Program-made: the position numbers and the translations under genes | Assembly: GCA_002633005.1 (NCBI GenBank) | Contig: NMRA01000492.1 | Span: forward strand, 124,001-188,000 | Length of the DNA: 64,000 nucleotides | Source of the DNA: Phoronis australis | Taxonomy: Eukaryota; Animalia; Phoronida | Reading direction: 5' to 3' | In this document: piece after piece, positions 27,201 to 57,200 of the stretch | Numbering within the stretch: the stretch's first letter is position 1 | Layout: every line of letters starts with the position of its first letter | Notes under the pieces: generated by a model | Databases searched by the model: none | What the model was told of the DNA's origin: nothing | Seen by the model: only the letters and a program-made list of their open reading frames with translations

Positions 27201-30200
27201 GTAGTGATTGGGATTAGTGTTATTTTTTGTACTTTCTGTGTAAAAATGATGAGGTCGTGACCAACGAGGGAAAATACTGGGTAACTGTAGCTGTTTATGA
27301 ACTACGAAAAATAGATCGATCCTTAAATTTTTTAACTGTGTCATGAAATGTTGTGGAAGATAAACTGACATTGTAAAATATGTTTGGTGTGGTAGGTTGT
27401 TCAGTGGAGTGTAAAGTATCAAGAAGACTTGTGTGTGCATTTTGCCTTGTGGCTCATTCATCAGTGATTAATTACTCCTGCAGTGTGTCCAAATTATCCA
27501 TCTTCATAAGTGTCTTGTTGGTCTCTTGTAATGTGTCTGCTATGTCGGCACCTATCTCATCTGTGTTCTCTTGATATGAACTGTGAGGGCTCTGTGTGAG
27601 CACTGATTCATGGTCAATGGTGGATAACATTAAGCCTAGGAATTATTACTTTGATATAAGCTTGTCTGGTATTATTTAACTGAATGTTGCCAATCAAGAG
27701 ATGTGTTCTGGTTTTCTGGTATAGATGCGCAATGTTAAAATTTGTTTTTTCTGTAGAGGCCATAGAATATTTATTGTGTAGATTAGCAACCCACCTCTGG
27801 TTTACATGTGACTTGGTCCAAGATATTTTAAGAGTAATTTTGCAGCTTTTGAAACTTTGTTATCGCAACATTGTCGAGTCATCATTGTTGGCCGGTGGCA
27901 TGTTCAAATGGTTTGCGAAAAAAGTCCGGTCTTCGCTAAATTTAGGTGTATGAAAGAAATTGTGTTTCGTCTCAGTTATCTCTGCAGGTGTTGACCGCCA
28001 GATTTTATCATGGGTCAAACAGAAGCCACTTTTGTGCTATCACAATGCTAGAGAGGTCTATGTGGAATGTTTGATATTGGTCATGGTCCTTAAATTTTGC
28101 TCATGCACATGGAATAAATCATTAATAGCTTGATAACTGAATAGCATGGCCTTTTATTATAGAGGTCTAAGTGAGTAATTACTTGCTTGATGTCCTAGGT
28201 GTAGTCTTTGTAATAATATCTCAGCATGGGATGTCCATAAAGTTGATGAGGTCACTGTTGTTGACTCACTTTGATGGTATTTTATTTCTGCTATGCATGT
28301 AAGGCTCATTCTTGTATTTGAAATATCTAGGGACACCATAGGATTTGTATCTGTACTTGCATCCTGATAATAGGGGCGGAAATGTATTGATTGGCCTTAA
28401 TAACAATTGATTTTCTACCATTTTAAGAAGAATCGTCTCCAATTAGACTTCGAGTATAATACAGGCAGTTACGGTAACAATGTCTTGTGTCTCCTGTAGG
28501 CAAAGTTGTGCTCTGACCAAAAAAGTAAAGCTGTGTTCTCAGTTTTACCGGTGGTGACCTGTGCCAAGACAGGTCATTGGTCATGTGATACACTTCTCAT
28601 CTTCCACACTCTCCTAGAGACCTTGGTTTTCTGTTTTCAAAAACAGAGAAATACATTTTTAAACTAACATAATATTCTGTTTTTTTTCTTTCTGTAAAAT
28701 GTCAAATTCTGTTTTGCTGTTTCAAAGAGATGAATAGCATAAAAATTACCCAAGAATTGCATTATTTTTTCAGCTCACTTGTGTCACAGCTCTGTTTTGT
28801 TTCTCTGATAACTTGCTGCGTGCCATATTAATTGTTTCTCAAAGCTGGAAAAGGACTGCACCTTTTGCATAAGGAACTTGTCTACTGAAAAACTATCGTC
28901 TATCGATTTGTGGCCAAAATACATTGAATTTCATGGATCATATATTCTTAATTTTTGGTCATCATAAACCAAAAAATAGGTTTGTGTCTGCTGCTGTAAT
29001 ATGGAAATTCTGTTCGAAATCCAATTCCAGGAAAGAGGTCACATTGATAAAGCAATACCTTTGATGTCACTCGTTTTTTATGAAAAATGAGAAAATAGAA
29101 TTTCACTATTCCACTAAGAGACTTAAGAGCAATTAAGGTGTTGGAAATATTTGAGCAAGCAGGTGACCCCCTTTAATGATGCAGCCAATCAGGTTTCTCT
29201 GTTTCCTCGTTTCCAGGACAACCACGCTGCCCAGATCAACACAGCTGAGCACAGCACAGAGAATCTCCAACAGGAGTCGGAACAGCCGCCCTCGGCAACG
29301 CTAGAAAAACAGAAGAAGGCGTCGCCTAAGAAATCGCCGGCAAAATCCTCTGGCAAGATGGCCAAGGTCAAGGTACAACTCCTCGACGGTTCTGACCTCG
29401 AGGAGACCATTGATGTGAGTAGCCATAGTAACGTGCTTGAAGTTTTTGCATTTAAACTGAAAAGTGTGTAATTATAGATTAAACTCCCACTTTAAAAGTC
29501 CTGAGGATCTGTGAAAGTGTTGCCTTTCTTTTCCAATCCGTAAATGAGGAAATAATCGAGTGGCATTTTCAGATATTCGAAGGTTACTTGATATGTCATG
29601 GAGGCTTTTTCAGTCCAGTTTGTCACACAAGAAACATTTCGTCTTAAACAATAACGTAGCCGACAAGTTTTCACTCCGCTTTCAAGCACCGATTCAGTGG
29701 ATTTGGCTGAAATCCGAAATTTTTAACAGCATGTAAAATCAGTCTAGAAATCGTTTTACCAGCCCCCAAGGGTGTGCAACGTATATTGCAAAAACGCGAC
29801 GAACCTGATGGAAAATACGGGAATACTACCCAGAAATGAAACTGGCGTTTTTTCTTCAGTTTTCAAGTTAACAAAATAGCTCGTACAGGGCTCGACGCTT
29901 AGCTTCACATCAAGTTACCAAATACAACCTGGCAAAATTCTTAGGGTGCCTGGTGGAAACTGAGGCCGCCAAATTTTCGTTGACAAGAGCGAACATGAAA
30001 GAAATCAGTTACCTGAAACGAAAAATCTGCAAACTCGGCGAATGCCCAACATCGTTCGGAGGAGTATCAAATAAATATTTTTATTGTTCAAAATTGGTGA
30101 CTGTATTTACACGCTGCCAGATTTGGAAACAAAAAAGAAATTGGCTTTGTAACCCAAACATGAACTTGTAAGGTCGTGTGTGAGAAGTTGCATGACAATA

Positions 30201-33200
30201 TGGCAACAATGAAAATATCACCATCACAGTTTGAAGCAGCTCCTGTGCTTGGAATTGTTTTGTCAAGTTGATAATCTTTGACTGGCAGTTGGTTCTATCC
30301 TTTCACACTCTTACAAAGATTTAAATTCCAACCCAACAGATGTGTTTGGTGTAGCTGCTGCTGCTGAGAGTGAGAAGCCTAGTTGTGTGATTTTGATTCT
30401 CTGCATGATCTGGAATCAATGCATTTGTTTTCTTAGCCTCCAACTGTTTCAGCAAATCACAATCTGTGACATTTAGAAGTGACCTCCATTGCAGCAGGTT
30501 TCTCTGTGGTGTTAAGGTCAGACACATACCCACTTGTACATTTTATCTCAAAGCTCCATGCAGCTTAATCTTAAAAAATCCATTACTTTGGTTCTTGTTT
30601 AGGAGTGGAATCAATTTTTTAATACCACCAGTTTAAAAGCTTTCCTATTCACATAATATAACACAGTGAACCATGTGTAGTTAGTACTTGTTTCAGTGGA
30701 GTGATTCACAGCCACCAGTTTGATTTGTAACAGTTTTAAGTAGACAGACTCTTCAGAAGTACAGTTGCACGAGACTTCAAAAAGGCAATTATTTGGGTCC
30801 AAAGTTTGAACGTTTTGAATATGTCCACCTGGAAGTGTTAAAGCACGGTGTCACGAATTATTAAAGAAGCCTTCTCAATTAACATGAAATGTGTCTGTGA
30901 AGTGCACTGTCATTGGTTATTGTACAACTGTTTATGGTAAAAGGATGCTGCTGGGTATAATGAACAACTCGTTAACCTGTCGTGGGTTGTTTGCAGAAAA
31001 ATGCTGTTGGTCAAGACCTCCTGAACAAGGTGTGCGATCACTTAAATCTGGTGGAAAAAGACTATTTCGCCCTCTCCTACGACGATGCCAACATCACAGT
31101 GAGTAAAGTGCCTTTGAGTTTTGACCGCAAGGTTGTGGGTTCAGTAATAAGTGGAAACATTAATCACAATTAATGGCTGTTTACTTTTTGTTCAAAATAA
31201 CTTAAGCAAAATGAAAATCAAAAAATAACTACAAGAAAAGGTTGGCCAAAATGGAGACACAAGATCGGGAAATGTGTAATAATGAAAACTTGTGTTATAA
31301 GAAGCTGTAGTGTCTAAGTTGAGGTAACTGTCCTAAATAACAGAGCTTCAAAGGTGGGTTTTCCAAAAGTGACCAGTATGAAGCCTTTCGTTTCAAAGTT
31401 TCATCTGCTAATCACCTGGATGTGAACATTCTCTGGAACATCTCATGGAATGCAGGCAGACACCCAGTGCAACCTAATCTAGCCCTGGACAATTTCTTAA
31501 AGAATGTGAAATAAGACACCTAGACGGACATGCAGAGTAATTAATAGACTGAACAGTGATATATCCATATCATCCCAAGTAATCCCCCTATCCCCTCCGT
31601 GGTAGTTGGAAGGCATGCAGCAACGGGTTGCCATCTACAAATGTTGATTATTGCAACAGATGAAATTCTATGATCACTAACAGCGTTTGCCCAAAACCAA
31701 ATCACCATTGAGGGCTTGTCTAAATATTTGAAGAGCTCAACCGCCAACATTTGTTTGTTATCTTTTACCGTCTGACCTCATGCCGAGATGTAGTGTGATT
31801 AACATGGGCATGATATCCATTCATAAAGAATGATGTGGCGCGCTTGCGATATGAGGGTTAAGATTAACGGATTTATCACCCACTCTGTATTGAGGTGAGA
31901 AATAGGTCGTGTGGCGGGTGCTATGCGCTTGGGATTTCAAGTTAATGTCTTGGGAAGGAGTGGAATTGATTACGACGGGGGGAGGTCCGCTCATTAAAAA
32001 TCGCATCAGAAGGCACCGGCATCTTCCCCTTTGGTGAGCGAGGGACCTGAATTTATCCACGACGTGTAGTGGGTATTTTCAATGCCCCAGGTGGATTGAA
32101 ACAAGGTTTAAAAAGTGATAGAATTTGTTCAATGTTCATTTATAGTGTGCTGTTGTGTTAAGTCATGAGTTTGGACAGCCTGTTTCTGTGTTGGAGTACA
32201 CACCTTTCAACACAGAATTGACTCGAGAGATGAGAAACAGGATTTCATGAGATTCGTAAAGACGTAGCCAGTTATACACCAGACAGGTCCCCATTAATAA
32301 TATACTGCTCAGGCAGGCTGTGTTGATATACACTAGCCAGGTGCACATAATAGCAGAGACTGGCCACGCACGCAGTATATCATACCTGGTGAGGTAGACA
32401 GTATCATCTACAATGACTAGTGAACTAGACATGTTTAACACTCGTGTAATACAAGTTCCCTGTTGTTGACTCATGGTTCTCGAGAACTAGGTGAACTGAA
32501 GTTAAGATAACTGAAGAAGGAGGGCATCAAAGGCTCTGCACCTGTTACCTATCAGTTCTGCTCTTGTCTAACCATTCTTGTCTACTCTGCCAAGTTCTCC
32601 GTTACAGAATTTTCATGTTTTCTAGCCACATGACACAAGTAGTTCACGTTTCAGTATGAAGCACTGACTGGTATTTTGCCATAACATCAAAACGAAGTTA
32701 CTGTCGCCGTTTGTCTTCATTTGTGATTGTTTTTGGTGTTTCGTGTTGGTTATTACAAAATTATTAAAAAACATTTGTTAAATTTTTAATAAAACAACAA
32801 AAATGGATCACTGCAATATTCGGATACAATAGCATCCTTCGTCAACGGAAACAGAAATAAAGTAAAATCAAACACTGCATGACAAATGACATCTGATATA
32901 TGGCGTAATGAGCGTAATGTAACATGTATCATTTTCATTACGCCACATATCAGATGTCAATTGTCATATATTCTACTTTTCGACATGCAAATGTATCCTT
33001 TAGAGGATCTGGATTGCCTCTTTTAGTTTCGGATTTATTTTCTACGTTAAATTTGAAACGTTTATTCCACTAACATTAGACACAAAAATAGCAAATTGGC
33101 GAAATTTAGCTGCTATTTTTTCCCAAACTGAAATCTCGCGCGTTTGCTTACCGCTCTGTTGCGTAGAAATTTATCTCATTTAAAAATAAAAGACCTTAAG

Positions 33201-36200
33201 CAAAAACCTTGTCTAATGTCAGGGTCCAAACACTGCTGAGATTCAAAGGATTGCTTTTCCTATAGATTTGTTATACAATAATTTTAACAGGCTATGGGTA
33301 GGAGACCATATGGTTATGGCTTCCAGTTCACCAACCAAGGCTTGGAATTTTTCACTTTTTAGAGGATTTACTCTTTTGGTTTCAATTTCCTCTTGATTTC
33401 AAGATTCCTCCTTTTTCATCCCTTTTTGCTATTATTTTGATTTCATTGTTGCAAAAACGTTTATTTCAGTGAAATTTTATGACGCAAAAAGTGTTTCTGT
33501 CACACAAATCTATTTGTGAAACGATACATCACCTTGAAAATTTTCCTCTTTTTTGTTTGCCATTGGTCATTCCAAACCCTGACCAACTAAGAACATGAAT
33601 TTACCGTCAGGCAGCAGTGGTGTTGAGCAGAACATGACTTGTTTGGATAACCAGTCATGGTTCGAAGGCCACCTAGTCATTTGGTGTCAGAAATAGAATA
33701 CTGGAATCCCTGCATTCCATTTTTTTAAATTTGCTTGACAAAAACATCACATTTATTTAAATCTCAAATGTCATGCAAATGTTAATTTTAAAACCCAATT
33801 ACCGAGCGTATGCCGCAAGCATTGAACACTAAAGTTACAAAGCAATTACTGTTTAAAAGGTAAATGAAAAAAAGCAAAGTAGGAAGGTATCTTGTCAGGG
33901 TGTAGAAACAGTCCATTGGCCAACCTTGTAAATATTCTGGCTAATCGTGTGTGAGTTGCATTCTGTTGATGTGTTGTTTTTATCTGTGGGCATGGTTTTA
34001 ACAGGGTTTAAGCAGTTGTCTCAGAGGTCCAGTTGAGTGTCTTGAGTCCAGGCACTAGATTTCACTTTGGCTTCATTGTTTACAGAGTTCAACCATTGGT
34101 TTTTGTACATCGTTTCCTCTGTATGTATTTAATTGCACTCAGTCTAGCCTAAATTGAAATAAATTTACAAAAGTCTGTTGACATTGGTTTAGAGATCCCG
34201 TCATGTCACTGCTTCTCTACCCTGCTGTTGATGTTCGTTCTGATAATTTTAAGGTCAGCAGGAGTTGACACTCTCCAATGTGCTAGCTAGTTTTTGTTTG
34301 CCTAAGTAGTCTGGATTGAACCTCTTCAAAATCACATTATGTACATGTTGTCAGCTGTTTTAGACATAAAGGCTGCTTGATCATGCTTACCAGACAGGCT
34401 GGCCTCTGGTCATTTAAATGTTTTTTGTTCCCATGACAATTCTGCCAAATGTGGTTGTTGGGGGTGGTGAGTTACTTACCGCTTGCTGATAATTATCCCC
34501 GTATTACCTTTTGGTTGTCACGGCGATGGTATCGATAACAAGGTCACATCTCTGGTGAATTAAATATGCATGTGTTTTTTACGTTCATGTGAGATGTCTT
34601 AACTGCTCTACTTTTTGCATTCATTTTTTATTGTGACTGGAATTGCTATTACACTGCGATAAGTGGAACGTAAGCTCCAGGTGATGTGATTAGCTAGTTC
34701 AAATGAATTTGTTGTCGTAGGATTCCTATTCAATAACCAAGTGTGAAAAACAGTTACTGGCAACCATTGTTCAAGCAAAAATCTCTAAAATTCAATATTG
34801 AAAAATTTTCAAGCTTGACTAAGGTTAAGTGTAGTGACTACCTCATGTTGATCTTAACCAATAAACAGTTGGCTACGGTGACTTGCCAGTTAGCTATAGT
34901 GACTTGTCAGTTAGCTACGGTGACTTGTCAGCTACAGTGACTTGGCAGTTTGCTACAGTGACTTGTCAGTTAGCTACGGTGACTTGTCAGTTAGCTACGG
35001 TGACTTGTCAATTAGCTACAGTGACTTGTCAGTTAGCTACAGTGACTCGTCAGTTTGGCCAATTTATGACAAAGTCAGCTGAGTAAAAAAAATATTTTAC
35101 AATCTTCAAGGGTGTGCATTATATATAGGCTGCTGTTGTTTCATCAGATGGCACATTTGTGGTGCTGTCTAGCTGGTGAAGTGTCTTGACCTGTTATCGA
35201 TTGTCACATCCCGTTGAAAGGGCAACTATGATAAAAGGTTGTCAGGTGTCCCCACAGCTAGGTCGCCTATAGTGGTTCGAAGGTGAAGTGGACTGTCTCC
35301 TAGATATCTGTTCTTATCGCTGACTGATAATTTTCCCTGTATGATTTCAGTACTGGTTGGCTAACGACAAGAAAATTAGCAAGCAATTGAGATGTGAGTA
35401 TATTTTTGTTTCATTCTGCAGTTTCCTTAATTGTAGAGTGAGAACATTTGCTGTTGCAGCACAGCCAACGTATTGTTCAGTTAATGTAGAATGGAGCTGT
35501 ACAGTGTGCCATGCTCGCTAGATAATGGAGCTGTACTGTGTGACAGTGTGCCATGCTCCCTAGATAATGGAGCTGTACAGTGTGACAGTGTGCCATGCTC
35601 CCTAGATAATGGAGCTGTACAGTGTAACTGTGCCATGCTCCCTAGATAATGGAGCTGTACTGCGTGGCAGTGTGCCATGCTCCCTAGATAATCGAGCTAT
35701 ACAGTGTGACAGTGTGCCATGCTCCCTAGATAATGGAGCTGCATTTCCATGGCGGTTAGCTACAAAAATTTAGTGAGCTCACGAAATTGATCTCGTAGTA
35801 TTCCTGTCCATGATTGGACTTTATTCCCATTGCTAACATGAAAATCGAAGTCCTCAGTGACCCAGGAAAAGGTTTCAGTGTGTATGGGAGTTCGACGACC
35901 CGAAAATTACAAAATTAGAAAATTGCACGTGCTCCTGTTGCCTGTGACTTTTAATTGCTCGATCAGGAACAATTATAGATGAGCGGATGAGTGTGGTAAT
36001 GTTTTTGAAGCCTATCTTGGAACAGTAACACCTGTAAGTTTGGTTCCTAACAGTAGATTATCAAATATAACTAACTGTTAGGAGTATTGGTTTGCTTTTG
36101 TCTACGTCACCACCAGAATCGCATTTTATTTAAACCAGCCGCGAATAACACCCACGTGCAATGGTGTTCTCTTCAGACGTCTATTCAATCAACTGTTATC

Positions 36201-39200
36201 GGCCTTCTGTTGTTTGTGCTGGGATCTCGCGGTGACACAACATGATTCGAAAAAGCAACTACACCTTTCATTTGATGGGTCTACATTTATTTGTGTGATA
36301 AAACTCTCGTTTTCTTATTTTGATAAAGGCTTTGCTGGAACTGACTACCTGGTTAGCACAATACGTCTAGAATAACAAAATTTCTTTGAACTTAGGTTTT
36401 AAACCCCAAAACGCTTCAGTTAAGAATAACCTCAAAGGTTCATTCTTTAAAACAACAACAATAACAACTATTAGGCAGTTAAACTCGACGCCAGTCATCA
36501 GTTCAAATCTCAATTTAGATACATGGTTAGGTCAGTTGATGATACGAACACCTGCACTGTGTTATCGGTTCTCTGATATTCTATTTCAAATGCCAGTGTT
36601 TTGACATGGAAATCAGAGAATTGGAGGCGACTTACCACACTGTCTGGGGATCCACACGAGTCAATGGTCTGATCTAACTATCACAATTGACTAGATGTAA
36701 GGAGCTTGAACGCGTGCCTTAATGCTCCCCTCTTCCATTGCAGCGACCCCATGGGTATTAGCCTTCCAAGTGAAGTTCTACCCGCCAGATCCAGCCTCGT
36801 TAGTGGAGGATATCACACGCTATCAACTGTGTCTTCAAGTTAGAAAAGATGTCTTGGATGGAAAGTAAGTGATTTGTTGGTATCATTGGCCTTGTTGTCA
36901 TTGAAGGTAACGAAACTGTGCCGTGCGTCTGTTATGCTTGTGTCTAGCTAATTATAGATGGTGCTGTAGGTCCACTGTTATAACTAATTGTCACAACTAC
37001 TCTGGTTTCCTGGCATGGGGCTTACTTTGTTTCCTCATTTATAAATTCCCATGTAGATAATAAAACGCCACTGATAACCATTTTCGAAACACCTCCATGT
37101 CTTGGAATTGAGTTGTGTGCCAAATTTGAGTCGTTAAGTACCGTTAGACGTTGTTGCATATGTTAGCTTTTCTGTTTGCTCTTGAATATCAGTCGTGGTT
37201 GTTATTGTGACATGTTTGTACAAGGTTCTGTAAGGTTAGACATGGTTAAGTCATCCCGAGATTCACTTATTGGTAAGATTGAAAGGACTTGTCAAAGACA
37301 TCATTGGTGGTTTGCAGTCCTATTTCTTGTCGCGTGCTGATCAGGGTAACGGTCTCGTCAGTAATATTACTGTGTGCTTTCCTGTGTTTCACTCAGCCTT
37401 CTTTATTCCTAGACTGCCATGTTCGTTCGTGACGCATGCCCTGCTGGGCTCCTACACTGTCCAATCAGAGCTGGGCGACTATGATGTGGGGGAACACGGC
37501 ATCGGCATCGGTTATATCCAAGACTTCCACTTTGCACCCAAACAGACCACCGAACTGTTGGAAAAGATTTCAGACCTCCACAGAACCCACAAGTACGTGT
37601 ACATTTGTTATTGGATGTATGGTTTATGTGCTGTAGTTAATCTTGTATTATAATTGAATGTTTTCTTTCGTTTGAAATCTTGATTTAAACATCTTTATTT
37701 AGATTCTTTCTGAAGGTGTCTCTGGAAACCATATAGAGAAGTTTTGGAGTTTCTTGTCTTGTACGACTTTCAGTCCAGCCTGGTAGATGATGTTACCAAT
37801 GTACAGTTTGTCTTTGTTACAAGTACTTTTACGTACTGATGTGTAATGGTGATTTCATCGCATTCATTATGAGCTGTTCTGCTGGGGCATATCTGTAGAG
37901 TCGCTGGCGTATCCGTGTGAATGTCCATTTAGTTTAGGTGAAATAAGTGTGCGCCTTTGTTTCCTTGCAGGGGCCAGAAGCCCAACGAGGCTGAGCTGCA
38001 TTACCTGGAAAACGGCAAGAAATTGGCTATGTACGGTGTGGACATGCACCCGACGAAGGTGAGGAGGGGGAGGTGACTATACACACTGGGGGCTGCTGCA
38101 GTAGGGATAGTCTGGATATGACTGTGGTCAAACTTTTTAGTCAATAACTTTACTTATTTTTAAATCTGAAAATATGTGTCCAGTGTTCAGGAACTTTCTA
38201 GAAACAGCACGACTCTCGATATTAAATCAAAAGTCAAAAAGTGAAGGCTAATAAAAAAAATCTGAGACATGGTTTTGGCATTGAAAGTGGGAAAGTTCAA
38301 ACACGGCTTACATATGTGGACTTTCAAGACATCGTGTTCAGAAGTTAGAAGTCTTGCTAAAATCGTGATTTCATGTAACCAGTCGAACACCACAATTTTG
38401 TTCTCTATTTCTGTCACGAAGAAGGCTCGCTGGTCTCGACTTTTGATGTAGTAATGTATTTAAGTTTTATTCTTTCGTTGATGTTTTCAAAACTGTAAAA
38501 TTCATCAAAATAGTGAAAGTAATAAACGAATGTTGACACTATTAACTGAAGTGTGTTTTTCTTTTGCGATCAAGTGATTCACTGAAAGCCGAGTTATATC
38601 TAGATCAACAAGTCACCTACGAGTGATTCACAGTCAATGTTGATTCTGCACCAAAATGAATGGCCTGAAACTGAATAGAGATTTGATGAACTCGTTGGGC
38701 GGTTTCTAATCCAGGCAATCCCTTGACTAGGGCAAGGACTTGGCGTAGAATCATGACAAAAAATTTCCCACACAGTTTGGCTTCTGCGTGGTATAACCAA
38801 TGAAAATGCTCAAAACTAAATATTATATGCATAGCTGATTTATTCAACGCAGTGGGAGGTTGGGCTTGTACTGTGGGAAATTTCTGGCTGAAGATTTGAT
38901 TTGATTGACAAACCTGGTGTTTTCCGAACAGCTTTTCAAAAGTATCAATTTTCTCTGTAAAACAAACTACCTGTGGTATCAAATAAATGTATAGGATTCT
39001 CTAACATGTTTTACTGTATGCACAACCACTGCTTTTAAAGCAGATTCACAATTTCAGTTTTTGTGATTGGTTAAGTGGTAAACTTTCTAAACATTTTCCA
39101 TTTTGTTTGTTGATTTATCATTGAGTAAACTCATTGGTTGCCACTAAATGTTGGCTCCCACCAGATGTCACTCTCTTTATGGATGGTAAATTTATTCATA

Positions 39201-42200
39201 GTTGCATATGACGTTTGTTTCAGGACTCTGAGGGTGTCGAAATCATGATCGGTGTCTGCGCCAGCGGCCTTCTCATCTACCGTGACAAGCTGCGCATCAA
39301 CCGGTTTTCGTGGCCGAAAATTCTCAAGATTTCGTACAAGCGAAACAACTTCTACATCAAGATTAGACCTGGAGAGGTACGAAGCAAGATTCACTTTGTG
39401 ACGCATAAAATTGTCTGATGCGTTGGTACATTTACACAAAAGTGTTTGAAGTACCATTTGTGTTGGAAGCTTTGATAGAAAGAGAGGTTAATTATAATTT
39501 GAGTAGGAACTGTATCGAGATAATTTGTATAAGCGATTGTGCAAATGTGGCAAAGAGCAGATGCTGTTATATATTAAGCAATTCATTATCTTTGTAGCTA
39601 ATTAGTCATTGCATTGCTAATTAGTCATGTTAAGCTAGTTGACACTTCTAGTTTTCCTGGATTGTAGTCTGGCTGGGGTACCTAATTGTACGCATTCTTT
39701 TGTTTGCAAAACTGTCTCGAAGTCGTTTTAACTCTGTTCGAAGTCTTAATTAATCTGCGCAAGCCTGAATTATCTGGTCCAAGTGATTTCGTCTAAGGAG
39801 GAATTTGGCTTCTTTTAAAAAAAGCCGAGTGAAGGAATTATATCAACAAAGGAGAAAATCTTAGCTTGGGATCATTGAAAAACCAACTTTCATTTGTGCA
39901 CACCCAACTTAGGTGACTTCGACTGCTGCGAGTTATATAACGTATATGATGTGTGTTAAGTGTCTGTTGCGTAGGTGTATATCTTCTGGTGTCTGGTTTC
40001 AGTTTGAGCAATTCGAGAGCACCATTGCCTTCAAGTGCCCTAACCACAAACAAGCAAAGAGACTGTGGAAGACAGCAGTGGAGCATCATACTTTCTTTAG
40101 GTGGGTGCTGCCACCTGGTGTGCCGTTCATGTAAAGTGTGTAAAGCTGCTTAATGGTGCAATAAACTGGTTCTCACTCAAGACGAAGCTCATTGAGCAGA
40201 TTGTCGGGGAAGGGAGGTTAGCTTCTTCAGTAGAAGCAATATGGCCAACACTGAATTCCAGGCACCTTTTTGTAATCAACTTCAGTTCAAACAAAGGACA
40301 AGTACGTGATTATATTACTTTTAAAGGGCAAAGGCACCTTTGAGAAAGTTTGATATTGGCGACAAAACATGGTTTATGGAGGTTTTAATTGTGAAATCAG
40401 AATTAAGATTAACCCTGTCAGACTGGACGTGAAATTCCCTTGCCATAATAGTTTCTGTTTTCAAAATTCAACCAAAATTAGGACCTGGGATTGCTTTAAA
40501 GCACTCTTATTTCGGGAGCGCTGGCCAACCTTTCATTTTCTCAACTGTTCTTTTCTTCCGTTAATACTTTGGATGCTTTCCCTGGAATTCAAAGTAAAAT
40601 TCTGTTCTGATTTTTGGACGGTTGATCAAGAGAAAATGCGAGCATAAGCTCTGAATAATTTTAATTACGATACATGCCTCAATTATATGTTGTTCGGTGT
40701 TGTTGCTGGACTTGGTGGTGTTCCCTGTTACAGAATGAAAGAGCCGGAAGTGCCCAAGAAGACCGGACTCTTCCCGGGCTTCGGCTCGCGCTACCGGTAC
40801 TCCGGCCGAACCCAGCACCAGACGCAACAGTCGGTCATTGACAGGGACGCACCCACAGTGAAACGGGGCGGGCCAACTCACAGCAGTATGGACGGTACGT
40901 AGATATTAATGTCATAATTGTTAACATTAATAACTGGTTGTTGATTTTACGAGTCTTTGATTGTTAACAATGTATTGTAGTATTGTCAGGAATATGTTTT
41001 TCTCAGATGTCTTACGGAACTAATGTCGGACGAATCTGTTCTGTAGGAAAAAGAGAAATCAGCTTGGTGAATACCGGTTTACGTTTCAAAAACTCTTGTA
41101 TAAGGACTGTGACCAGTTACGCATTTGCAAGACGTTGCTGACTTAGAAGTTAATTTTATTCAACTCTGTCTACAGTAGCAGCTGTCTCCAAAGTGATGCT
41201 GAAAAGTGTCTGACCAAACTGAATTATCGTTATTAGTGTTGTTTTTCTACACGAACATTTTGATTCCCTGACGAGGTTGTTGCATCGTGAACTGTTGTGG
41301 CATGTACAAAGCTGTACAACTGTCCCCTGTTCGACACGGAAACTGCTACTTTCTCGTTTTCGTTGTTGACTAAAATCATGGCAGTATTTAAGACGGCAGA
41401 AACCCAAAATGATTTTTGTTTTTGTGTTTAGTCCACTGGCTGTTATAAACATTCTCGCCGTGTTCCTTACTTGAATTAAAGATGATTTCAAGGGCAGAGG
41501 AGAACTGACCGATTGTTATTGCTTCAGACTATTTAACTTGCTTGTTGCGGTGGGGCTAGTTTCAGACAGTGTGCCCTATTAGGGAATTCCATGAGATTAA
41601 GTGTGGCCCAATTTCATTTCAAACAAGGGATAGGAATGCATTTGACAATGTTTGTGAAGAAAGTTTTTTTTTTTACTCTAGAACGTGGTTTATAGTGGGT
41701 AGCTTAAATCTGGGTTAAACTGTAGTATCCTGACTCTAAAACATTGATTTGTTGAGTAGAATTCAACTTATTTGACCTGTTTATGTATTGTTGTGTTGAG
41801 GAGACAGGTAATACGTCTGTTAAAGGAGTCGCCAGAGTTTTTCTCCTCCATTTTAATCACGTACCCAACCGTCGCTGCCTTTACAGAACTCCATCAATTC
41901 GCTCCTGGAAGCAACGAAAGTCTAGACATGGCCGAGCGAAGCGCCACATTACCAGGTTGTTAGCCCATCTGCCCCCATATGCCAGCATTCTGTACTAATA
42001 GGTTGCCCAATGCATGCACTTTGTCATTCCACTATTAGACAGTTTGTTCAGTTTACATTGACCGCATGGATAGTCTAGTTAATAAACAGAACTTAATACT
42101 CCGAGTCTTGTCTTGTCCAATAGCATGTCTAGTTATGCTACAGTTCTAGTGGTTTAACTCCAAGATTATGCAGGGTTCCCATTGTGGCTATTAAACTCTG

Positions 42201-45200: not shown

Positions 45201-48200
45201 TGCAGCAGTTTAGTTTTGATCCGTTATTAACCCTGCACTCTGCAAATACCATTTATGGGAGATCTACAGTAGCCTAGACAATATATGCCTTGTGACAGTA
45301 TATACAGGGTAAATTTTTCCTGGTAGATAAATGTTCCCAGGATGCAAATATATGAAAAGTGCACATGATTGAACTATAGCACTTTCCCCTGGTTCAGAGG
45401 AAATGGACACAATACATATTGCCCCGATGCATGGTAAATGGAAATAGTAGTGTGATGTTATAGTAAAACTGCACTTGTCGGTCAAGTGAACATGACTGCT
45501 ACTTTGTTGGAAAAAGACTTTGAACCTAAAATCATGACACCAGATCACTCAATTTGAGGTTGCTCATCTGATCACATGTAGTATAGCTGTTGTGTTGGGA
45601 CACGTATTTATTTCAATGGCGCATTGTGTTTCTCGATTTTTGGTTAGTTTGAAAAAATAATTCCAAGTTCTGATATTAGGTGGGTTAGCACTTCTACTTT
45701 TGTCACCATTGTACTTTGTTTGACGTGGCATATTTGGCTCTCATTTTCGTATTATCCGTCTTTGAAATTTCAGATTTCTGGACCTTACTTTCATTTTTTC
45801 GTAAAACTCTGTAAACCAGATCATCTAAGCTTTCGCCTTAATTAGTAATGTCACACTGTGTACAGTTAGTAGCCATATCTCTGTTGTCTGTAGCATAGTG
45901 CTATCACTCTTGACATGCTGCTAACACACTCAGGTCATAGAGGACATTGATGCTGGTGAACAGGTTGAGGGGCCACTTGTCACCCGAAAAGAGCGTTACT
46001 CGCCCTCGACCAGTCTGCCGCGCGACTCATCCCTGCCGCGGGCTGTCAAGAAGAAAGGATACAAACCAGAGCGCCCCGTGGTGGCCGAAGAGATTGTGCC
46101 CGTCGAGCACGAACGCAGCTACCAACAGCACCCGCTCCTATCTCCTTCCTCTCCGCTACAGGTTTCTCCGTCTTTCTAGTTTTTACGTTCATTTCTTCTG
46201 TTCTCTTGGTGCTCCATAATACTAACTTTTAACGTTTGGTTAGCTCTCATTCACCTGTCTTTGTTTTTTTTTTTTTGTTCTTTAAGCATTCATTTTCTTT
46301 AGATTTTTCTAATTTCGTTCTCGCTTCTGAATAGCTGTTTTCTTTGTTTTGTTTCTGAGTGGTAAATCTGATGTTAATGTTCACCGACTCACTCTGGGAG
46401 TGATTATTTCCTCAGCCCGGACAATATACTTTTGTGACCACTGATCAGGACGGTAACGTGACGCAGTGCGTGGCTGAGCCCGACGGCACCATTATTTCGC
46501 GCAAGACGCTGCCTCCTATCAAGAAGGACAGCACCCTGCCACGCCCGAATCTGGGCCCCAGGAGTGCAAACACGTACCCCCGGAAACAGGTGGATAGACC
46601 CTAACGGCATGCTAACAACAGCCTTGCGCTCGGAATGTTGATTGCTATGTTCCTAGGATTACTTTTCTGTTCAATCTAATGGCCCGCTTTTTAAAAATCT
46701 CGTCTTTGTCTCTTGTCTTAGACCTTGAGTGGTGTCTTCTCCTCTAGTGACCCGTGGATGTTCACAATGTGCCTCTGCTGTGAAACTGTTTCAAGACTTG
46801 CATGATACTATATTGCGCTCAAAGAGTCCGCGTCATCGTCTACAGACGGGAGTCTGTATTGTGTTGGTGTTAAAGGCGTACATCGACGTGGCAGTGTTTC
46901 ACTTTTGCTATTTGTGAATGACATACCTGTCCATTGTTTATATTAACGATACAGTTTGTAGGTGGTTCAGCCTTATTCATTTACAGCATGAAATTGACTG
47001 CTGAGTGTGATGCGTACTGTGTTCTTCCAGTTACAGACTATAGTGACTGGATGTCTTGAGTCTTAAAATTTGGTTTGAAAACACTGTCTCTCTTTCACGT
47101 CCATCTCTTCTTGTCGCATCATTTCTCTCCACCGTAAAAGCCTGCAGCTGTTACAAGGTGAAACGGCAACTTTTGTGGGTGATGTAGTACAAGCTGAGGA
47201 TTGTTTATTCTTCTAGATCTACTATATGCTAGGTGTTCTTCTGAACGTTCAGGAATGTATTGTGAAGTCTATGTTTTGCCGTCTGTTTTTCTCTGGGCCG
47301 TCCATCATTGGTAGGCTCTCAATGTGCTGTTTCATATAATGGCATGCTCTTGACTCTGCACCCCGTTGTTTATAGTATTTAGTTGTGTTTGTTTCATTTT
47401 GTTATGTTGTTTAATATGCCCTACTTCGCGCTCTAAATGATCACTGTTTGTCAGCGTTTTACGCTGGTATTTCACACTTTTATTTTCACGCACAAACTGA
47501 TAATCACTTTGTTTGACGTGTTCTCTTGTACTGAAAGCTTTTTTGTCTCGTCTCTTGTGTTCAGTTTCTTCTGCAGTGTCTTGTTCCATCACTATGTTTC
47601 TAATTCCTTTCTGTTGTTATTGTAGTACGACCAGGATGACCTTATCCGCGCCATGGGCAGTGCTAATTGGTGGAAGTATGCTCCGGAGGAGCGGTTCGCC
47701 ATGCTGGGGCCCCAGCGATGCTGTCCCACCCAGGAAGAACAGGAGAACCTGTTGCGTGACTGGCCGCTGTTGAAACCGCAGGAACGCGCCGATGTTCTGA
47801 AGCGGTGGCCGCGTCTGACACCAGGAGAACGAGAGAGACTGCTGGACGACTGGGCCAAGCTGAACCCCGAGGAGCGCAAGAAGACGCTGTCCCAGTGGTA
47901 CGACATGGCGCCAGTGGAACGCCAAGTACTATTATCCAACTGGGATAACCTGTCGCCGGAGGAGCGCAAGATTCTGATGAACAACTGGCCGCTGTTCACA
48001 CCGATGGAGCGCGCCATCCTGCTGAGCCAATGGCCTAAGCTGTCGCCAGAAGAGCAGGACCGCATACTAAGGGACTGGGACAAGCTGACGCCGGAGGAAC
48101 GAGACATGGTGCTGAGAAATTGGTACAAACTGTCGCCAGAAGAACAAGACAAGCTATTGGAGGCTGAGAAGGCACGACGACGGGCTGCCAACTTACCTGT

Positions 48201-51200
48201 GGACGTGAGTAGTGGGAGGCATACTGGTAAGGTTGGAGCTGTTGAGCTATGTGTAGATCTGAGCTCTTGGGAGAGAACATATTTGTGGGGTTGGTGTAGC
48301 TGATAAAAATGTCACTTGTTTATTAGACTTAGAGGTACACGCAGTTAGATGGATACTGTCCATTTTTCAAGCTTAAGGCAGTTGTTGTATTGCTATATTT
48401 CGAGGAGAATTTTTCGAACCATTTGTTGCTCATCGCACGGCACCAATGACTCACATTACTCACTTCCATAAGAGGGAGCTGGTGAGTGTCATGCAAGTGT
48501 GTTGCACGTGACACTTTGAAGTGGATTCCAATACGAACCATGACACTTTTGCACAATTAGTGATTATATCTTGACCCCCAAAAGTGTTTTTGTCTGTGTT
48601 TGGAAAAATACACGGGAAGTTCTAACGGTGTTGTCTGTGTTCACTTACAGGGTGTTCAAGATGAACTGATTCAGAGGTATGGCAAGGACACGAGTGCCAT
48701 TGACTATATCAAGACGGCGGCCGCGCTCACTCCGGAGGAAGAGGTGCGACTACGGCTCCAGGAGGATCTGAAGAGGCAAGAGGCTGCTGGGGAATCTGTC
48801 GACTCGGTGAGTGAGGATTGGCTAGGTCACATGACTCTTGGGCACCAGATTTTTGTCTCGGTGTCACGCACTTTGGTTGTAACAGGGTGGAGAGATGAGC
48901 CAGTATTGGGACTTGTTCATGCTCTGAGTAAGCAGTTGTCAGTTGCGTGGAAGGGCAGGACTCACTGCGTGACGTTGTTCCCTCTTTTCGTGCGAAATGT
49001 ACGCAAAATGTAAAACTTGGTAAGCTCGCGCACATTTTTCATAACATCAAAATGATTTCTGCCCAGTCAAATTGTGAGTTAATGCATTCCGTTATGCTTG
49101 GCAATGCAAACATTACTAGTGCATAAACTGCACGTTTTGGTCGAGAACGAAACTCGTGAAAGATAATAAGAGTATCCTGGAAGATGCACAGAAAATTTGC
49201 GGAACATGAAAACGAATTTGACAGCGGGAATCGGGATCTGAAACCTAGCCATGGTTTTGACAGAGTCCAGCCTTGAAGTTTAAAGGTCCGTCCAAGTGTC
49301 TTAGTCTTGCTTGACCGTGTACAGCTGCCATCGCATTTGGACATCATGCCCGCAGTTTTTGGGGCCAGCGGCAGGACTGCAGTGCTTTTCAGTTTTTGTT
49401 TCCGCATAGTGTAGCCACTGTTGTTACAAGTCCTAGCATCGAATTGTTTCTCCACCCTGTGTAAGGACTGTGCACTGTTTCAAGCACTGTGAGTGAAACC
49501 ATCTTTCATGTGGTTCAATTGAATATTGTTGTTGTGTACCATTCACCCACGTGTCTGTTCTGGAACAGAGTATGCCGTGACCATGCAAAAAGTTCCTAAG
49601 TTTTTGCGTGCTGGCTGAAACACTTGGCAAATCTCGGAACTGTTTTTTTTTTTTTTTTTTTGAACTTACGAAGCACATCCTGAGCAGTTTGTGGGCTCGT
49701 ATTTTTGTGTACTCTTTGGTTTTAGCTAAACAGTCTATGGTGCTAATTTTTGTCTTGACTATTAAAACATGGGGGTTTGGTGGCAGCCAAGAGCTATGTT
49801 TCGCCATTTTGTAGCAGCTGTAAACTGTCACCGTTTTGAGCAACTTGAGACAGCGGTGAAATATTGCCGTCTTAGAAGTTGTCTAAATTTTTTGCCTTTT
49901 TTGTCATTTCATTGTGACACCACGGTAGCCAAATCTGCTTGGATTTGATTATAGTCTCCCAAAAGGGAGTTGCCAAGGCATTTTGTCATGAACACAAAGT
50001 TATTTAGACATAGTGTTGTTTCCTCGTCACGACGGTGCTGTCCCGTCATAACGATGAACTCCGTTCGCACTTAGCCATTGTAATGGGAAATTCCAGTTGC
50101 ATTGCAGTCAACATGACGTCGAATTTCTAGTCATTCTGCACGTTTCTTGGTAGACCAGCTATGCCTGGCCGTTTTTGTTGCAGTTTAGGTGGCAACTTGT
50201 TCCAGCTGAAATTTTAGCCGTAGCTGTTTGGGCATTTTGTACTCAAGTTCTGCCTGTGTTTAGACTCTAGTTTGACCGTTACTGTAGACAGTAGTTTGTT
50301 TTAGACTAGGTCTCAGGGCCGCATGAGTCTCAGTGGTTGACATGCATTGGTTGCATGCTAGCACAATAGACTCCACTGACTGACACATTCTGAGATATCA
50401 AATTCCGTTGACATTTAATTTTTTAATGCCAAAGATTTACAAAACTTTCGGATAGTTTTTTTCGTGTATTTCAGGCACTCTGTGAATTAGGACCCTCTGT
50501 TTTCCATGCTATTTTTAACACTTTATTCTCTGTTACAAAAGTCTTGGCAACTATCACCAACCACGTTTTAAAGGGACATTGTCGGTTTTACGGTTCAAAA
50601 ACGCATTTTGGGTATTCTTGTATGGGATAGGCTTCTTGAAGGTATTATCTTTGACCAAAGCTATAAAACAAGATCCATTGTCGTCTTGGGATTTTGCAAA
50701 TTGCTGCTTCTCACTATTGTCCTCCAGACTTTCACTGAAATCAAAGCTGGTGTATTCACCACATACTCGGCAGTGCTGCATGTGTGATGCGACTCAGTGA
50801 CAGAGCCGTTCGCCTGCTACTGCCGAGCTTGTGAGTTCGATTCCTTTCTGCTAATTTCTGGTAAATTTATTTTCTTGCCGAGAATGTCCCTTTAGATATT
50901 ACGCTGTTCAAAATTCGAACTACAAAAATACTAATACTTAACAATTTTAGGAACCTTAGTAGATAGTTTCATAGTTTTATTTGAGCTCTTCAGCCCTGGG
51001 TTACCGTTATCGACAGTTGCGAGTGTTCCATCGCCAGCCGCCATGTAGTCGGTAGACCATGTGGTGCGCGTCAACATAGACTCTTAATTCTAGTTCACCG
51101 CCGTCCTGTGTGTGTTTCAGCTGAACATCAATGGTACTAAGGGCAACTGGGAGTCTGGCGACGAGTCCAACCCAGCCTCACCAACCTCCGATGCAGCCTC

Positions 51201-54200: not shown

Positions 54201-57200
54201 CATTGTATCATAATATTAAACTCCTCTTCGCGTATTTTTCCACAGTGATTATAAGAGGAGTTGTAGTATTGATTAGTTTATTTGCCTATATCTTCAAATG
54301 TACCGCCAGATCTCTAGCGGAATAAACTCATTATGGAAGAGTGGAAAACAAGTTGAAATGAACTTCTGGAAAACTTGTGTGATCAGTTGCAAGGCTTGGA
54401 ATTTTCCGCGGAAACGCGGATTTCCGCTTTTTTCAAATGTTCTGTCTGCGTATTTTATTATATTTCCGCGTTAAAAAAATCGGATTTGATATAAAATTTC
54501 CGCGGCAAATTCCTTTCTTGCCGCGGCGTTGCCGACGACTTTCACCTCGAAAAGCGGAAGTTGCTCTTTATGTTTCGGGGCATCTGGGATAGCGTGGTGG
54601 ATTTTTCAATGGCCTGGTGCGATTGTAAACCGCGGTGACAAATACTACGACTCTGCAGCCAAAAATGTGCGGAGGTGGGAGTGGACAAGCCAGCTAAAAA
54701 GAAGCAGACGCTCGCTTCCAGAGGTGGTACCGTTTTGTTTTTTTTTTCAGTCCTCGCGTTTTTTTTTTTTGTCGGCAAGGTGTCCACATGGGCCATATCG
54801 AGGCCGGGAAGCGTGCATGTTTTGGGCCGTAAAAGTTTCCACGTATTTCGTCATTGGTCATTCCAAGCCCTGCAGTTGTTAACTAAAAAACAGCACGTGC
54901 TGGAAGTGCATGCGGAAGAAACACAGTATTGGTAGCACTGTCCAGTTTGTGGTGCTGTTCATTTGGTAAGATAAATGTAGCCATTTGATTCACTGGTGTT
55001 CAGCGGATTTATTTGCTCATACAACATGCAGGTCAAACTTGAATATCCACAAATTTTGTTTTGGGACAGAAGACCCTTCTTAGAGACACAGATGGGTGCT
55101 TTATACATGCACACTTGCAATTGCTTGCTGCGTCATTCCTGAAGATATGGTGCCACTACTGCTATGAGACCTGTCGAAAGCTCCTTCCGTGAAGGGTGCT
55201 GGCATAGACGTGAGAAGTATGAGTACTTGTGCTTCCTAATGCTTTAGGTTGTCTGGTGCAAGTCTGGTCTTTCATTCAGTGGTGTCATCGAATGGAGATT
55301 TCCGTTGAAGGTCACAGCTGCGTCGGGAGGTCATGTCATATTCGGTGTAGATGTTGTTTCTTGAGCAGTGGGTGCTGAATGGGTCTTACATTTGCCTAGC
55401 ACCATGCCTAGTGTTGGCTCAACTGATCACAGACAGTCGGATTTTGAGGTTCTGGGTTTCTGACCCTCATTAGAATAGTAGTCTGTTCTCACTCGGGTCA
55501 TTCATCTCAAAGTATGCAACATGTAGGTGAGCATTCCCAAACATATTTGCACTCAAATGCACAGACATATTTCATCATTATTGACTGATACACAAGTCTT
55601 TTTGCATGCCCAAGTGCCACAAAGGTTTGGCAATGGTAAAGTCAGAATTAAGGTGCATGCCAAAACATGGAGTCGTCGGAGTGGGGGGGAAGGACTAGCG
55701 AATCTCAGGTGTGTTGTCTTTCAGCGGACTACTGTGCAATCGACTGCCACAGAAAAGTCCACCAAATACACCAGCGAAGTGCCATTGGTCAAAACCCAGA
55801 AGAGGGTTATAAATGTGGAGGTTGACCCTAACGGGACGACACGAGTTGAAAAGGAAATCACCATCACCGGCAATAGTCAAGACATTGACTATGATGAAGT
55901 GAGTATTTATCTGTTCAGTTTTCTGCTGTCCGCTTGTCCGTGTTGCATTCATATGAAGCCCAGATTCAGCTTCGGCTTAAAAAAGTCATAGAGCGGTTAT
56001 ATGTGGCAAATATTTTTTAATACATCAAGTTAGCCTTCCTACTTTCACCTGATAACACTGTGGACTTGTTGAAGTTCAGTGACAGCTGCAAGCTTGTTGT
56101 GGCTTTAAGAAAAATGCATAATACAAAGTATCGTCTGAAGAGGGATTGTTTGGTAAGAGTGTGATTGAGGTTTGTGAAGCGCGGCCTGTTTGCTCTAAGA
56201 GTTACTTGTCGGTCACTTTGAAGTATCACCTCTCTCACGTATAACGTTGACAGCACAATGCCTCCAGTAGCTATAAAGTTTTATGCAACCCAGCTATGGC
56301 CTATGCTTAAATGAGCTTGTGATCACAGTAATGTTAGTCATCAAATCTATCAATTTTAATTGTGACTTGCATCTCGTGGATTGTTGGGCATAAGCATCTG
56401 AGAAGAGGAAAGTTAAGCCTAAGTTGTTCTAATCCACTTGTCATTTCCTACCAGGCATTGGCAGCTGCCATTCGTGAGGTGACAGACATGGATCCAGATC
56501 TCTCTGTAGACAAAATAGAAATCAAGACAAGCTAATCAACTCAGGTGAGGGTGTGTTTAGATGCTTTGCTCGCTTGACCTACTGTTTGTTAATTGTGTGA
56601 GGTTTTATAACAGCCACGTATTGGTTGCAGATGCCCTGAAAAAGCATGTGCGATAAAGTTGGTGGTTAGCCCACTTCACTGTTCACTCCTAGATCAGTAT
56701 AGAGCTCTGTGCTTGCTGCGTAATGGAAGTGTTAGCAAATTACAATATTTCAGCATTTTTTACCCACACCTCTGCAGTACTATTCCGTAGTTAAAATCGT
56801 GCCTTTTTCATTTCAGTCACTCTCTCAACACCGCCTGCCTGAGTGTTACCGTGGTTGCACATTGCGGTGGAAAACTCGCTGTATATGTCTTTCTATTTGG
56901 TGTGGATTGCTGCTATCGTCGCCGCTTATCGTTGTCACCTGGATTGTAAAAAATGGTGCAACTATGTTGCCAGCATATGAAGGACTTTTATTGACGTATT
57001 TTAGCCAACATCTGACCTTCAGCTTCCATAGTCGTGTTATGTGATGAAAACTTGTCATGCTAGCCTGTGTCATTTTGATAATGTTTTAGTACTCATCAAT
57101 AAATATTTGTACGACATACTATTTTTATGTAGAAGCATTGAGCACCAGAGTATTGTGAGTATTGTATTTCGTAGATGCATTAAGTTGTAAACAAAAGAGT

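Follow-up and report, generated by a model that had tools for sequence, protein, structure and literature searches.

Protein 4.1 ties membrane proteins to the cell cortex through its FERM and CTD domains (PMC3791450 and PMC2132682, in the portions available), and the function of its unique regions is given as poorly defined in the accessible text of PMC3791450. The window analysed here, a whole stretch of 64 kb from Phoronis australis in which positions are counted from the first letter, contains an exact fifteen-residue tryptophan repeat within one of these regions. It raises the question of whether the repeat is a genuine part of the protein, where it came from, and what it might do.

The repeat exon and its host gene

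The repeat is carried by an exon at 47626..48204 on the + strand (579 nt, 193 aa, phase 0/0) with AG and GT at its edges and joints seen in RNA; the frame is open on this strand over 47626-48300. Within protein 4.1 the exon falls in U2/3, the interval that separates FA from CTD. Nine exact 15-aa units, each with a predicted helix, occupy 47761..48165 (+ strand) at a spacing of 45 nt, and all of the nine claimed in an earlier note on this DNA were present. The unit pattern is W-x-x-[LMF]-x-P-x-E-[RQ]-x-x-h-[LM]-x-x, with W1, P6 and E8 each found in nine of nine units. Position 4 (L in seven units, M in one, F in one) and position 13 (L in eight, M in one) are hydrophobic throughout, position 12 is hydrophobic in eight of nine units, and position 9 is R in seven and Q in two. 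The two degenerate units said to precede the array were located at 47668..47760 (+ strand; exon residues 15-45, low model confidence). The worn unit at residues 31-45 is in exact register and lacks W1 and P6, while that at residues 15-29, starting at 47668, is shifted in register by one residue. Self-matches at a lag of 15 numbered 58, compared with a shuffle mean of 13.0 and maximum of 29, and none of 20,000 shuffles reached 58. The net charge of the nine units is -3 (near neutral) and the pI of the domain is approximately 5.2. A search of the 64-kb window for further copies of the repeat returned none.

The host gene had been taken to be protein 4.1, and this assignment was borne out by the FERM, FA and CTD regions. 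Searches by tblastn with eight relatives recovered the FERM exons in order, and the best named matches were 4.1 proteins. Eight exons for the end of U1 and the FERM domain (29217..40100, + strand) were modelled by homology using tblastn and exon edges. The FA exon (40734..40894, + strand) was identified by Pfam PF08736 at 42.5 bits (cut-off 30.6) and in RNA. The CTD was recovered by tblastn with E values down to 2e-14 over two exon sets; a single 26-aa CTD exon piece scored 15.7 bits against PF05902, under the cut-off of 25. Upstream of the repeat exon, RNA joints defined three alternatively skipped U2/3 exons (41887-41955, 45934-46161 and 46416-46589) and one that was not seen skipped (43777-43871), all on the + strand. 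Downstream on the same strand follow a spliced exon at 48651..48806 (52 aa, phase 0/0), a likely sister duplicate carrying a single helix-cap unit, and two further U2/3 exons seen in RNA, at 51121-51213 (skipped in some reads) and 52786-52881. A first, shortened pair of CTD exons containing a stop codon (55725..56544, + strand; tblastn) is spliced to the repeat-side exons. The second, more canonical set (61023-61223, 61741-61830 and 62997-63092, + strand) was placed by tblastn and exon edges. These two tandem CTD sets are likely alternative 3' ends, and the four U2/3 cassette exons allow several splice paths or more. With the repeat exon included, two isoform models read open from 29217 to the stop codon of the first CTD set, giving 774 and 962 aa.

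The FERM-FA region is 62-76% identical to lophotrochozoan matches, and in trees it fell, on a longish branch, within a lophotrochozoan group with support of 95/93 in the larger tree, which was built with a donor 4 bases off that shown by RNA, and of 92/96 in the other. In AU tests, grouping with three annelids gave a p-AU of 0.33, and grouping with three molluscs a p-AU of 0.034; these molluscs also fail to group together when the tree is unconstrained. The vertebrate-type SAB, reported earlier as absent from the interval, was likewise not detected here: no PF04382 row was obtained with Pfam for the repeat exon or 11 other exon pieces, and the SAB-bearing queries P0120 and P0130 gave no tblastn match in the FA-CTD interval. 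According to the available portion of PMC3791450, the lack of a recognisable SAB is normal for invertebrate 4.1.

Also present in the window were an intronic high-copy element at about 54390-54872, with deep RNA coverage on both strands and many loose ends, and non-coding tandem arrays at 34866-35055, 35501-35741 and 58350-58675, with units of 21, 42 and 47 bp.

Inclusion of the repeat exon in mRNA

Splicing was assessed with three stranded raw-read runs from one study (18-19% of each run) and one contig set from a second study, with reads mapping to the locus mostly at 99%+ identity. Joints were listed only when covered by at least 3 reads, and the joint table was complete at 10 joints. Reads into the exon numbered 59, 55 and 86, and reads out of it 62, 83 and 154, in runs X2, X3 and X4, respectively, for totals of 200 in and 299 out, with an imbalance in X4. 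Upstream the exon was joined to 43871, 46161 and 46589, and downstream to 48651; every listed joint into 48651 originates at 48204. The exon is thus spliced into 4.1 mRNA, as the proposal of a new 4.1 domain had presupposed.

It had further been described as a skippable symmetric exon. The symmetry stands, as the exon is of phase 0/0 and the reading frame remains open when it is removed; skipping was not seen, no joint that bypasses the exon being found in the three raw-read runs or the contig set. The cassette exons at 41887, 45934, 46416 and 51121 were skipped in the same RNA. Both the phase and the cassette nature of the adjoining exons would fit a tissue-specific cassette that toggles a binding surface, sampled here from a tissue that includes it. 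Set against this are 0 skipping and 299 inclusion joints in the three raw runs and the lack of a skipping joint in the contig set of the second study, and we consider such a cassette unlikely. It could nevertheless coexist with any of the readings considered below, be it docking, spacing, spectrin/actin binding or import.

Conservation at the protein level

The units have a mean identity of 55% in DNA and 44% in protein, and identity by codon position is 0.55, 0.67 and 0.43, the third position being lowest. Pooled over 36 unit pairs, pS was 0.64 versus a pN of 0.39. A neutral simulation was run 20,000 times to the same DNA divergence as the units; 611 runs stayed free of stop codons and none of the 20,000 kept three invariant columns. 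These values agree with the selection at the protein level that had been proposed for the repeat. No DNA-level tandem array was listed in the exon by Tandem Repeats Finder at score 30, and two SNPs listed inside the exon (among 40 of the 108 rows of the SNP table) are both synonymous. The GC3 of the exon, 0.72, is similar to the 0.66 of a FERM exon. Alternation of odd and even units ranked 61 of 126 for protein and 98 of 126 for DNA, and grouping of units with a period of three was not supported. The repeat is old and has been maintained at the protein level; as a domain it is real, expressed and selected.

Occurrence in other proteins

A profile of the repeat was used to scan 134 other 4.1 sequences retrieved by their FERM region (the best 120 of 7,469 matches and 14 cluster members), many of which are isoforms of few species. 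The repeat was absent from all 134 (best E value 2.5; the exon itself scored 217 bits), in keeping with the lineage-specific domain that had been suggested. Of these sequences, 67 span FA to CTD; none of the 67 relatives has more than 3 tryptophans there, versus 11 here, and the length of U2/3 in them ranges from 148 to 1582 aa. Homologues of the 193-aa product were found among neither 760 candidates of 339-2000 aa nor 61 of 106-338 aa, which is weak evidence of absence. A search of representatives with the exon product returned 57 matches, none of which is a 4.1 protein by Pfam. In metagenome contigs, 117 pattern matches were reduced to three loci judged to be chance or motif-level, one of them a tail-like protein and the other two consisting of one short match each. 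The phage collection yielded one weak tape-measure match only, ESM Atlas no usable match to the repeat, the PDB sequences three weak matches (best E value 0.02), and NCBIfam six rows, all far below cut-off. A literature search, with most subscription papers outside its reach, found no description of this repeat, and the domain is apparently undescribed so far.

Tandem repeats unrelated to this one occur in U2/3 of other 4.1 proteins, with units of 30 aa in P0064, 18 aa in Ridgeia and 9 aa in Haliotis. Lophotrochozoan 4.1 proteins including P0064, P0065, P0096 and P0113 have lineage-specific U2/3 repeats, often accompanied by one or two QED motifs.

Relation to DUF3106 and other repeat families

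The likeness to bacterial DUF3106 repeats that had been suggested in the earlier note was recovered by Pfam (PF11304; 45.3 and 47.7 bits versus a gathering cut-off of 24.3). The cut-off is also passed by 39 of the 57 library matches and by unrelated repeat proteins (P0003, P0005, P0007 and P0021), among the unrelated ones being a TrbI-like protein, a FecR and a protein of 2770 aa. Shared with DUF3106 is the motif W-x-x-[LM]-[ST]-P-E-[EQ]-R. The period differs, being strictly 15 aa here (lag-15 score of 29 versus a lag-18 score of 5) and mostly 18 in DUF3106 matches by our own measurement rather than by a curated definition. Periods of the 57 matches peaked at 18/36 in 24, at 15/30 in 18 and elsewhere in 15. 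The present repeat differs further in its two hydrophobic residues at positions 12-13, and in lying within an animal cytoskeletal protein, whereas DUF3106 proteins are small (about 120-330 aa). Some of these small proteins mix 15- and 18-aa steps, with 15-aa stretches in P0029 and P0043. None of the top five matches is a small DUF3106 protein; all are unrelated, long and periodic at 15 aa, with 19-30% identity. Alignment A1 with bacterial DUF3106 members gave 16-30%, a likeness at the level of the motif only. In the literature searched, DUF3106 appeared in a single study, present in two versions, which does not deal with its function.

The motif likeness is real; descent is not thereby shown. 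A separate origin appears likely, and the sister-exon evidence described below points to a local one. Exonisation of a DUF3106 module from a bacterium or a Helitron-like element would account for the passed cut-off, shared with 39 of the 57 library matches, and for the 15-aa stretches of P0029 and P0043; DUF3106 is named among the domains carried by Helitron-like HLE2 elements in the available portion of PMC11417382. Such an import appears most improbable, given that the five best matches are unrelated long proteins, that the profile is as permissive as described, that the period here is 15 and 24 of the 57 matches favour 18/36, and that the ends of the exon match those of the adjoining host exon at 48651-48806.

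A resemblance to the last helix of the HMG box, also put forward earlier, was rejected (PF00505; 7.5 bits versus a cut-off of 25.4, E value 7.3). DUF7167 passed its cut-off (26 and 29.5 versus 24.4) over 14 residues and was treated as a motif-level match.

Long 15-aa repeats of the same pattern were observed in Darwinula stevensoni, beside a PARP domain in P0002 and after an AAA-type NTPase region in P0022; no repeat family above cut-off fits them well. These two proteins, together with P0003, P0005, P0006, P0010 and P0012, share with the present repeat the 15-aa period, an aromatic or hydrophobic position 1, hydrophobic positions 4, 12 and 13, and acidic positions 7-8. P0002 aligns to it gaplessly in any register at 26-29% but does not keep the tryptophan and proline. 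The host proteins and taxa of such repeats are unrelated, and common descent is without evidence. Branchiostoma belcheri P0004 has a near-perfect 15-aa tryptophan repeat ahead of a C-type lectin domain, possibly, at a guess, a collagen-type repeat in the wrong frame.

Origin of the repeat exon

The exon at 48651-48806, 446 bases from the repeat exon, carries a single L-[ST]-P-E-E unit. Both exons start with Q-D-[DE]-L-I at residue 3 and their ends are alike, a likeness that was spotted by eye and tested afterwards. Alignment of the two with the array looped out gave a z of 5.1 (0 of 5,000 shuffles), and the same alignment with six other exons a z of at most 1.3 in all six. When the helix-cap unit common to both was kept in place, the score was reached in 18 of 10,000 shuffles, and for each end alone in 12 and 16 of 20,000; at the DNA level, the likeness was reached in 2 of 500 codon shuffles. 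A QED profile was made from 19 motifs of a chosen subset of 20 non-vertebrate (lophotrochozoan-like) 4.1 matches. Its top seven sites all lie inside the two exons, with modest P values of 0.03, 0.02 and 0.002 for ranks 1-3.

The two exons begin alike, end alike and have one helix-cap unit in common, a likeness unmatched in 5,000 shuffles, which makes it likely that the domain arose in place by duplication of an exon followed by internal amplification. The short exon would have been duplicated, and its one helix-cap unit amplified ninefold within what is now the repeat exon. The earlier picture of a domain inserted into protein 4.1 is thus probably wrong, the exon resembling an expanded duplicate of the next one. 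This account of the origin is the most testable part of the analysis.

Predicted structure

AlphaFold2 was run twice on the single sequence (193 aa and 158 aa) with no alignment. Mean pLDDT was 72.7 and 79.8, respectively, the five models spanning 67-73 and 76-80, and pTM was 0.57 and 0.63. Blocks of pLDDT 80-93 cover units 3-9, and prediction was poor for units 1-2 and for the two worn ones. Each unit is predicted to open with a helical turn of 3 residues (W-x-x), which two linking residues connect to a helix of 9 residues beginning at P6, and the models are consistent with the short-helix solenoid envisaged from the sequence earlier. Foldseek at an E value of 0.001 found no match in the PDB or in viral models. 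The best hits of a wider fold search had Z values of 8.2 (rmsd 4.0, 128 residues aligned) and 8.8 (rmsd 3.9, 128 aligned), the neighbours being alpha-solenoids of various kinds and designed helical repeats, with no single match clearly ahead. For these predicted models, such Z values are typical of a common arrangement and neither name the fold nor prove novelty. Homodimer prediction gave no usable answer (score 0.00, twice).

As in alpha-solenoids, which together with designed helical repeats were its best structural neighbours, the domain would be a tandem repeat of stacked helices. Eight subfolds are distinguished in the accessible text of a review of alpha-solenoids, where PPR units measure 31-36 aa (PMC11514114); these are helix-turn-helix units, whereas here there is one 9-residue helix per 15 aa. 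At E values up to 10, Pfam gave 18 and 23 rows, none of them for a classical subfold family. The leucine-rich repeat variant (LRV) has alternating alpha and 3-10 helices arranged in a superhelix, with a unit of about 24 aa. Its alternating helices resemble the turn and helix predicted here, but its unit is longer than 15 aa, and no LRV row was found in the Pfam or fold-search lists for the exon.

Putative function

With modest confidence, we favour a docking role for the repeat, as a rigid segment lying between the FERM and CTD domains; the same degree of confidence is attached to the joint account of a spliced exon, a predicted solenoid, an origin in place and docking. The nine units would stack into a compact, rigid and roughly neutral helical solenoid within an otherwise variable linker. 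Judging from the sequence, the core would consist of W1 and positions 4, 12 and 13. Position 5, which is rich in S/T, would serve as the helix cap, and positions 7, 10, 11 and 14, which vary, would face outward. Units 4-6, which hold six of the eight hydrophobic residues found at variable positions (a small, post hoc count), are a candidate patch for binding a cytoskeletal or junctional partner.

A folded but passive spacer that determines how far apart FERM and CTD lie or how stiffly they are joined, with selection on the fold alone, is a possible if somewhat unlikely alternative. The conserved positions are of fold type only and the outer positions vary freely, the charge of -3 over nine units is close to neutral, and U2/3 regions of 148 to 1582 aa among the 67 relatives often hold unrelated repeats. 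A mere spacer would sit less well with an exon not seen skipped though its neighbours are, with the concentration of hydrophobic residues in units 4-6, or with a folded unit that is unusual for a linker, all 67 relatives having at most 3 tryptophans against 11.

The position of the domain, in the same interval as the vertebrate SAB, invites comparison with spectrin and actin binding. In the available portion of PMC3791450, U2/3 of amphioxus BjP4.1 is 68 aa long and lacks a recognisable SAB, yet it binds both spectrin and actin. The present gene and invertebrate 4.1/Coracle, BjP4.1 included, are alike in the order U1-FERM-FA-U2/3-CTD and in having no recognisable SAB (PMC3791450, same portion); it differs from them in its two CTD exon sets and in the 135-aa tryptophan repeat in U2/3 that is predicted to fold. 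The cryptic binding in amphioxus, and a first CTD set from which the greater part of the amphioxus-like segment is missing, would suit a spectrin/actin-binding module that evolved independently and takes the place of the vertebrate SAB in the first-CTD isoform. Such a module seems quite improbable. The minimal amphioxus binding peptide resembles the start of the exon at 61023, not the repeat, so that the comparable segment is present separately. The repeat exon and 11 other exon pieces had no Pfam SAB match, and no actin- or spectrin-binding fold was prominent in the fold searches. Actin-binding surfaces are usually basic, whereas the pI of the domain is about 5.2.

A broader reading is that the birth of a domain has been caught, an amplified 4.1 helix-cap motif having become a stable solenoid of an unsolved structural class with a new binding partner. 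We hold it tentatively and regard it as rather doubtful, at a level that covers as well the same solution having been reached independently in bacteria, an ostracod and others.

For protein 4.1, the analysis shows that the U2/3 region, in one species so far, holds a selected and regularly spliced repeat that is predicted to fold. Together with the probable sister exon, which bears one unit and lies at a distance of 446 bases, the repeat is a compact test case for the emergence of a folded repeat from a short motif, and the domain would offer structural work a soluble, natural helical repeat of 15 residues.
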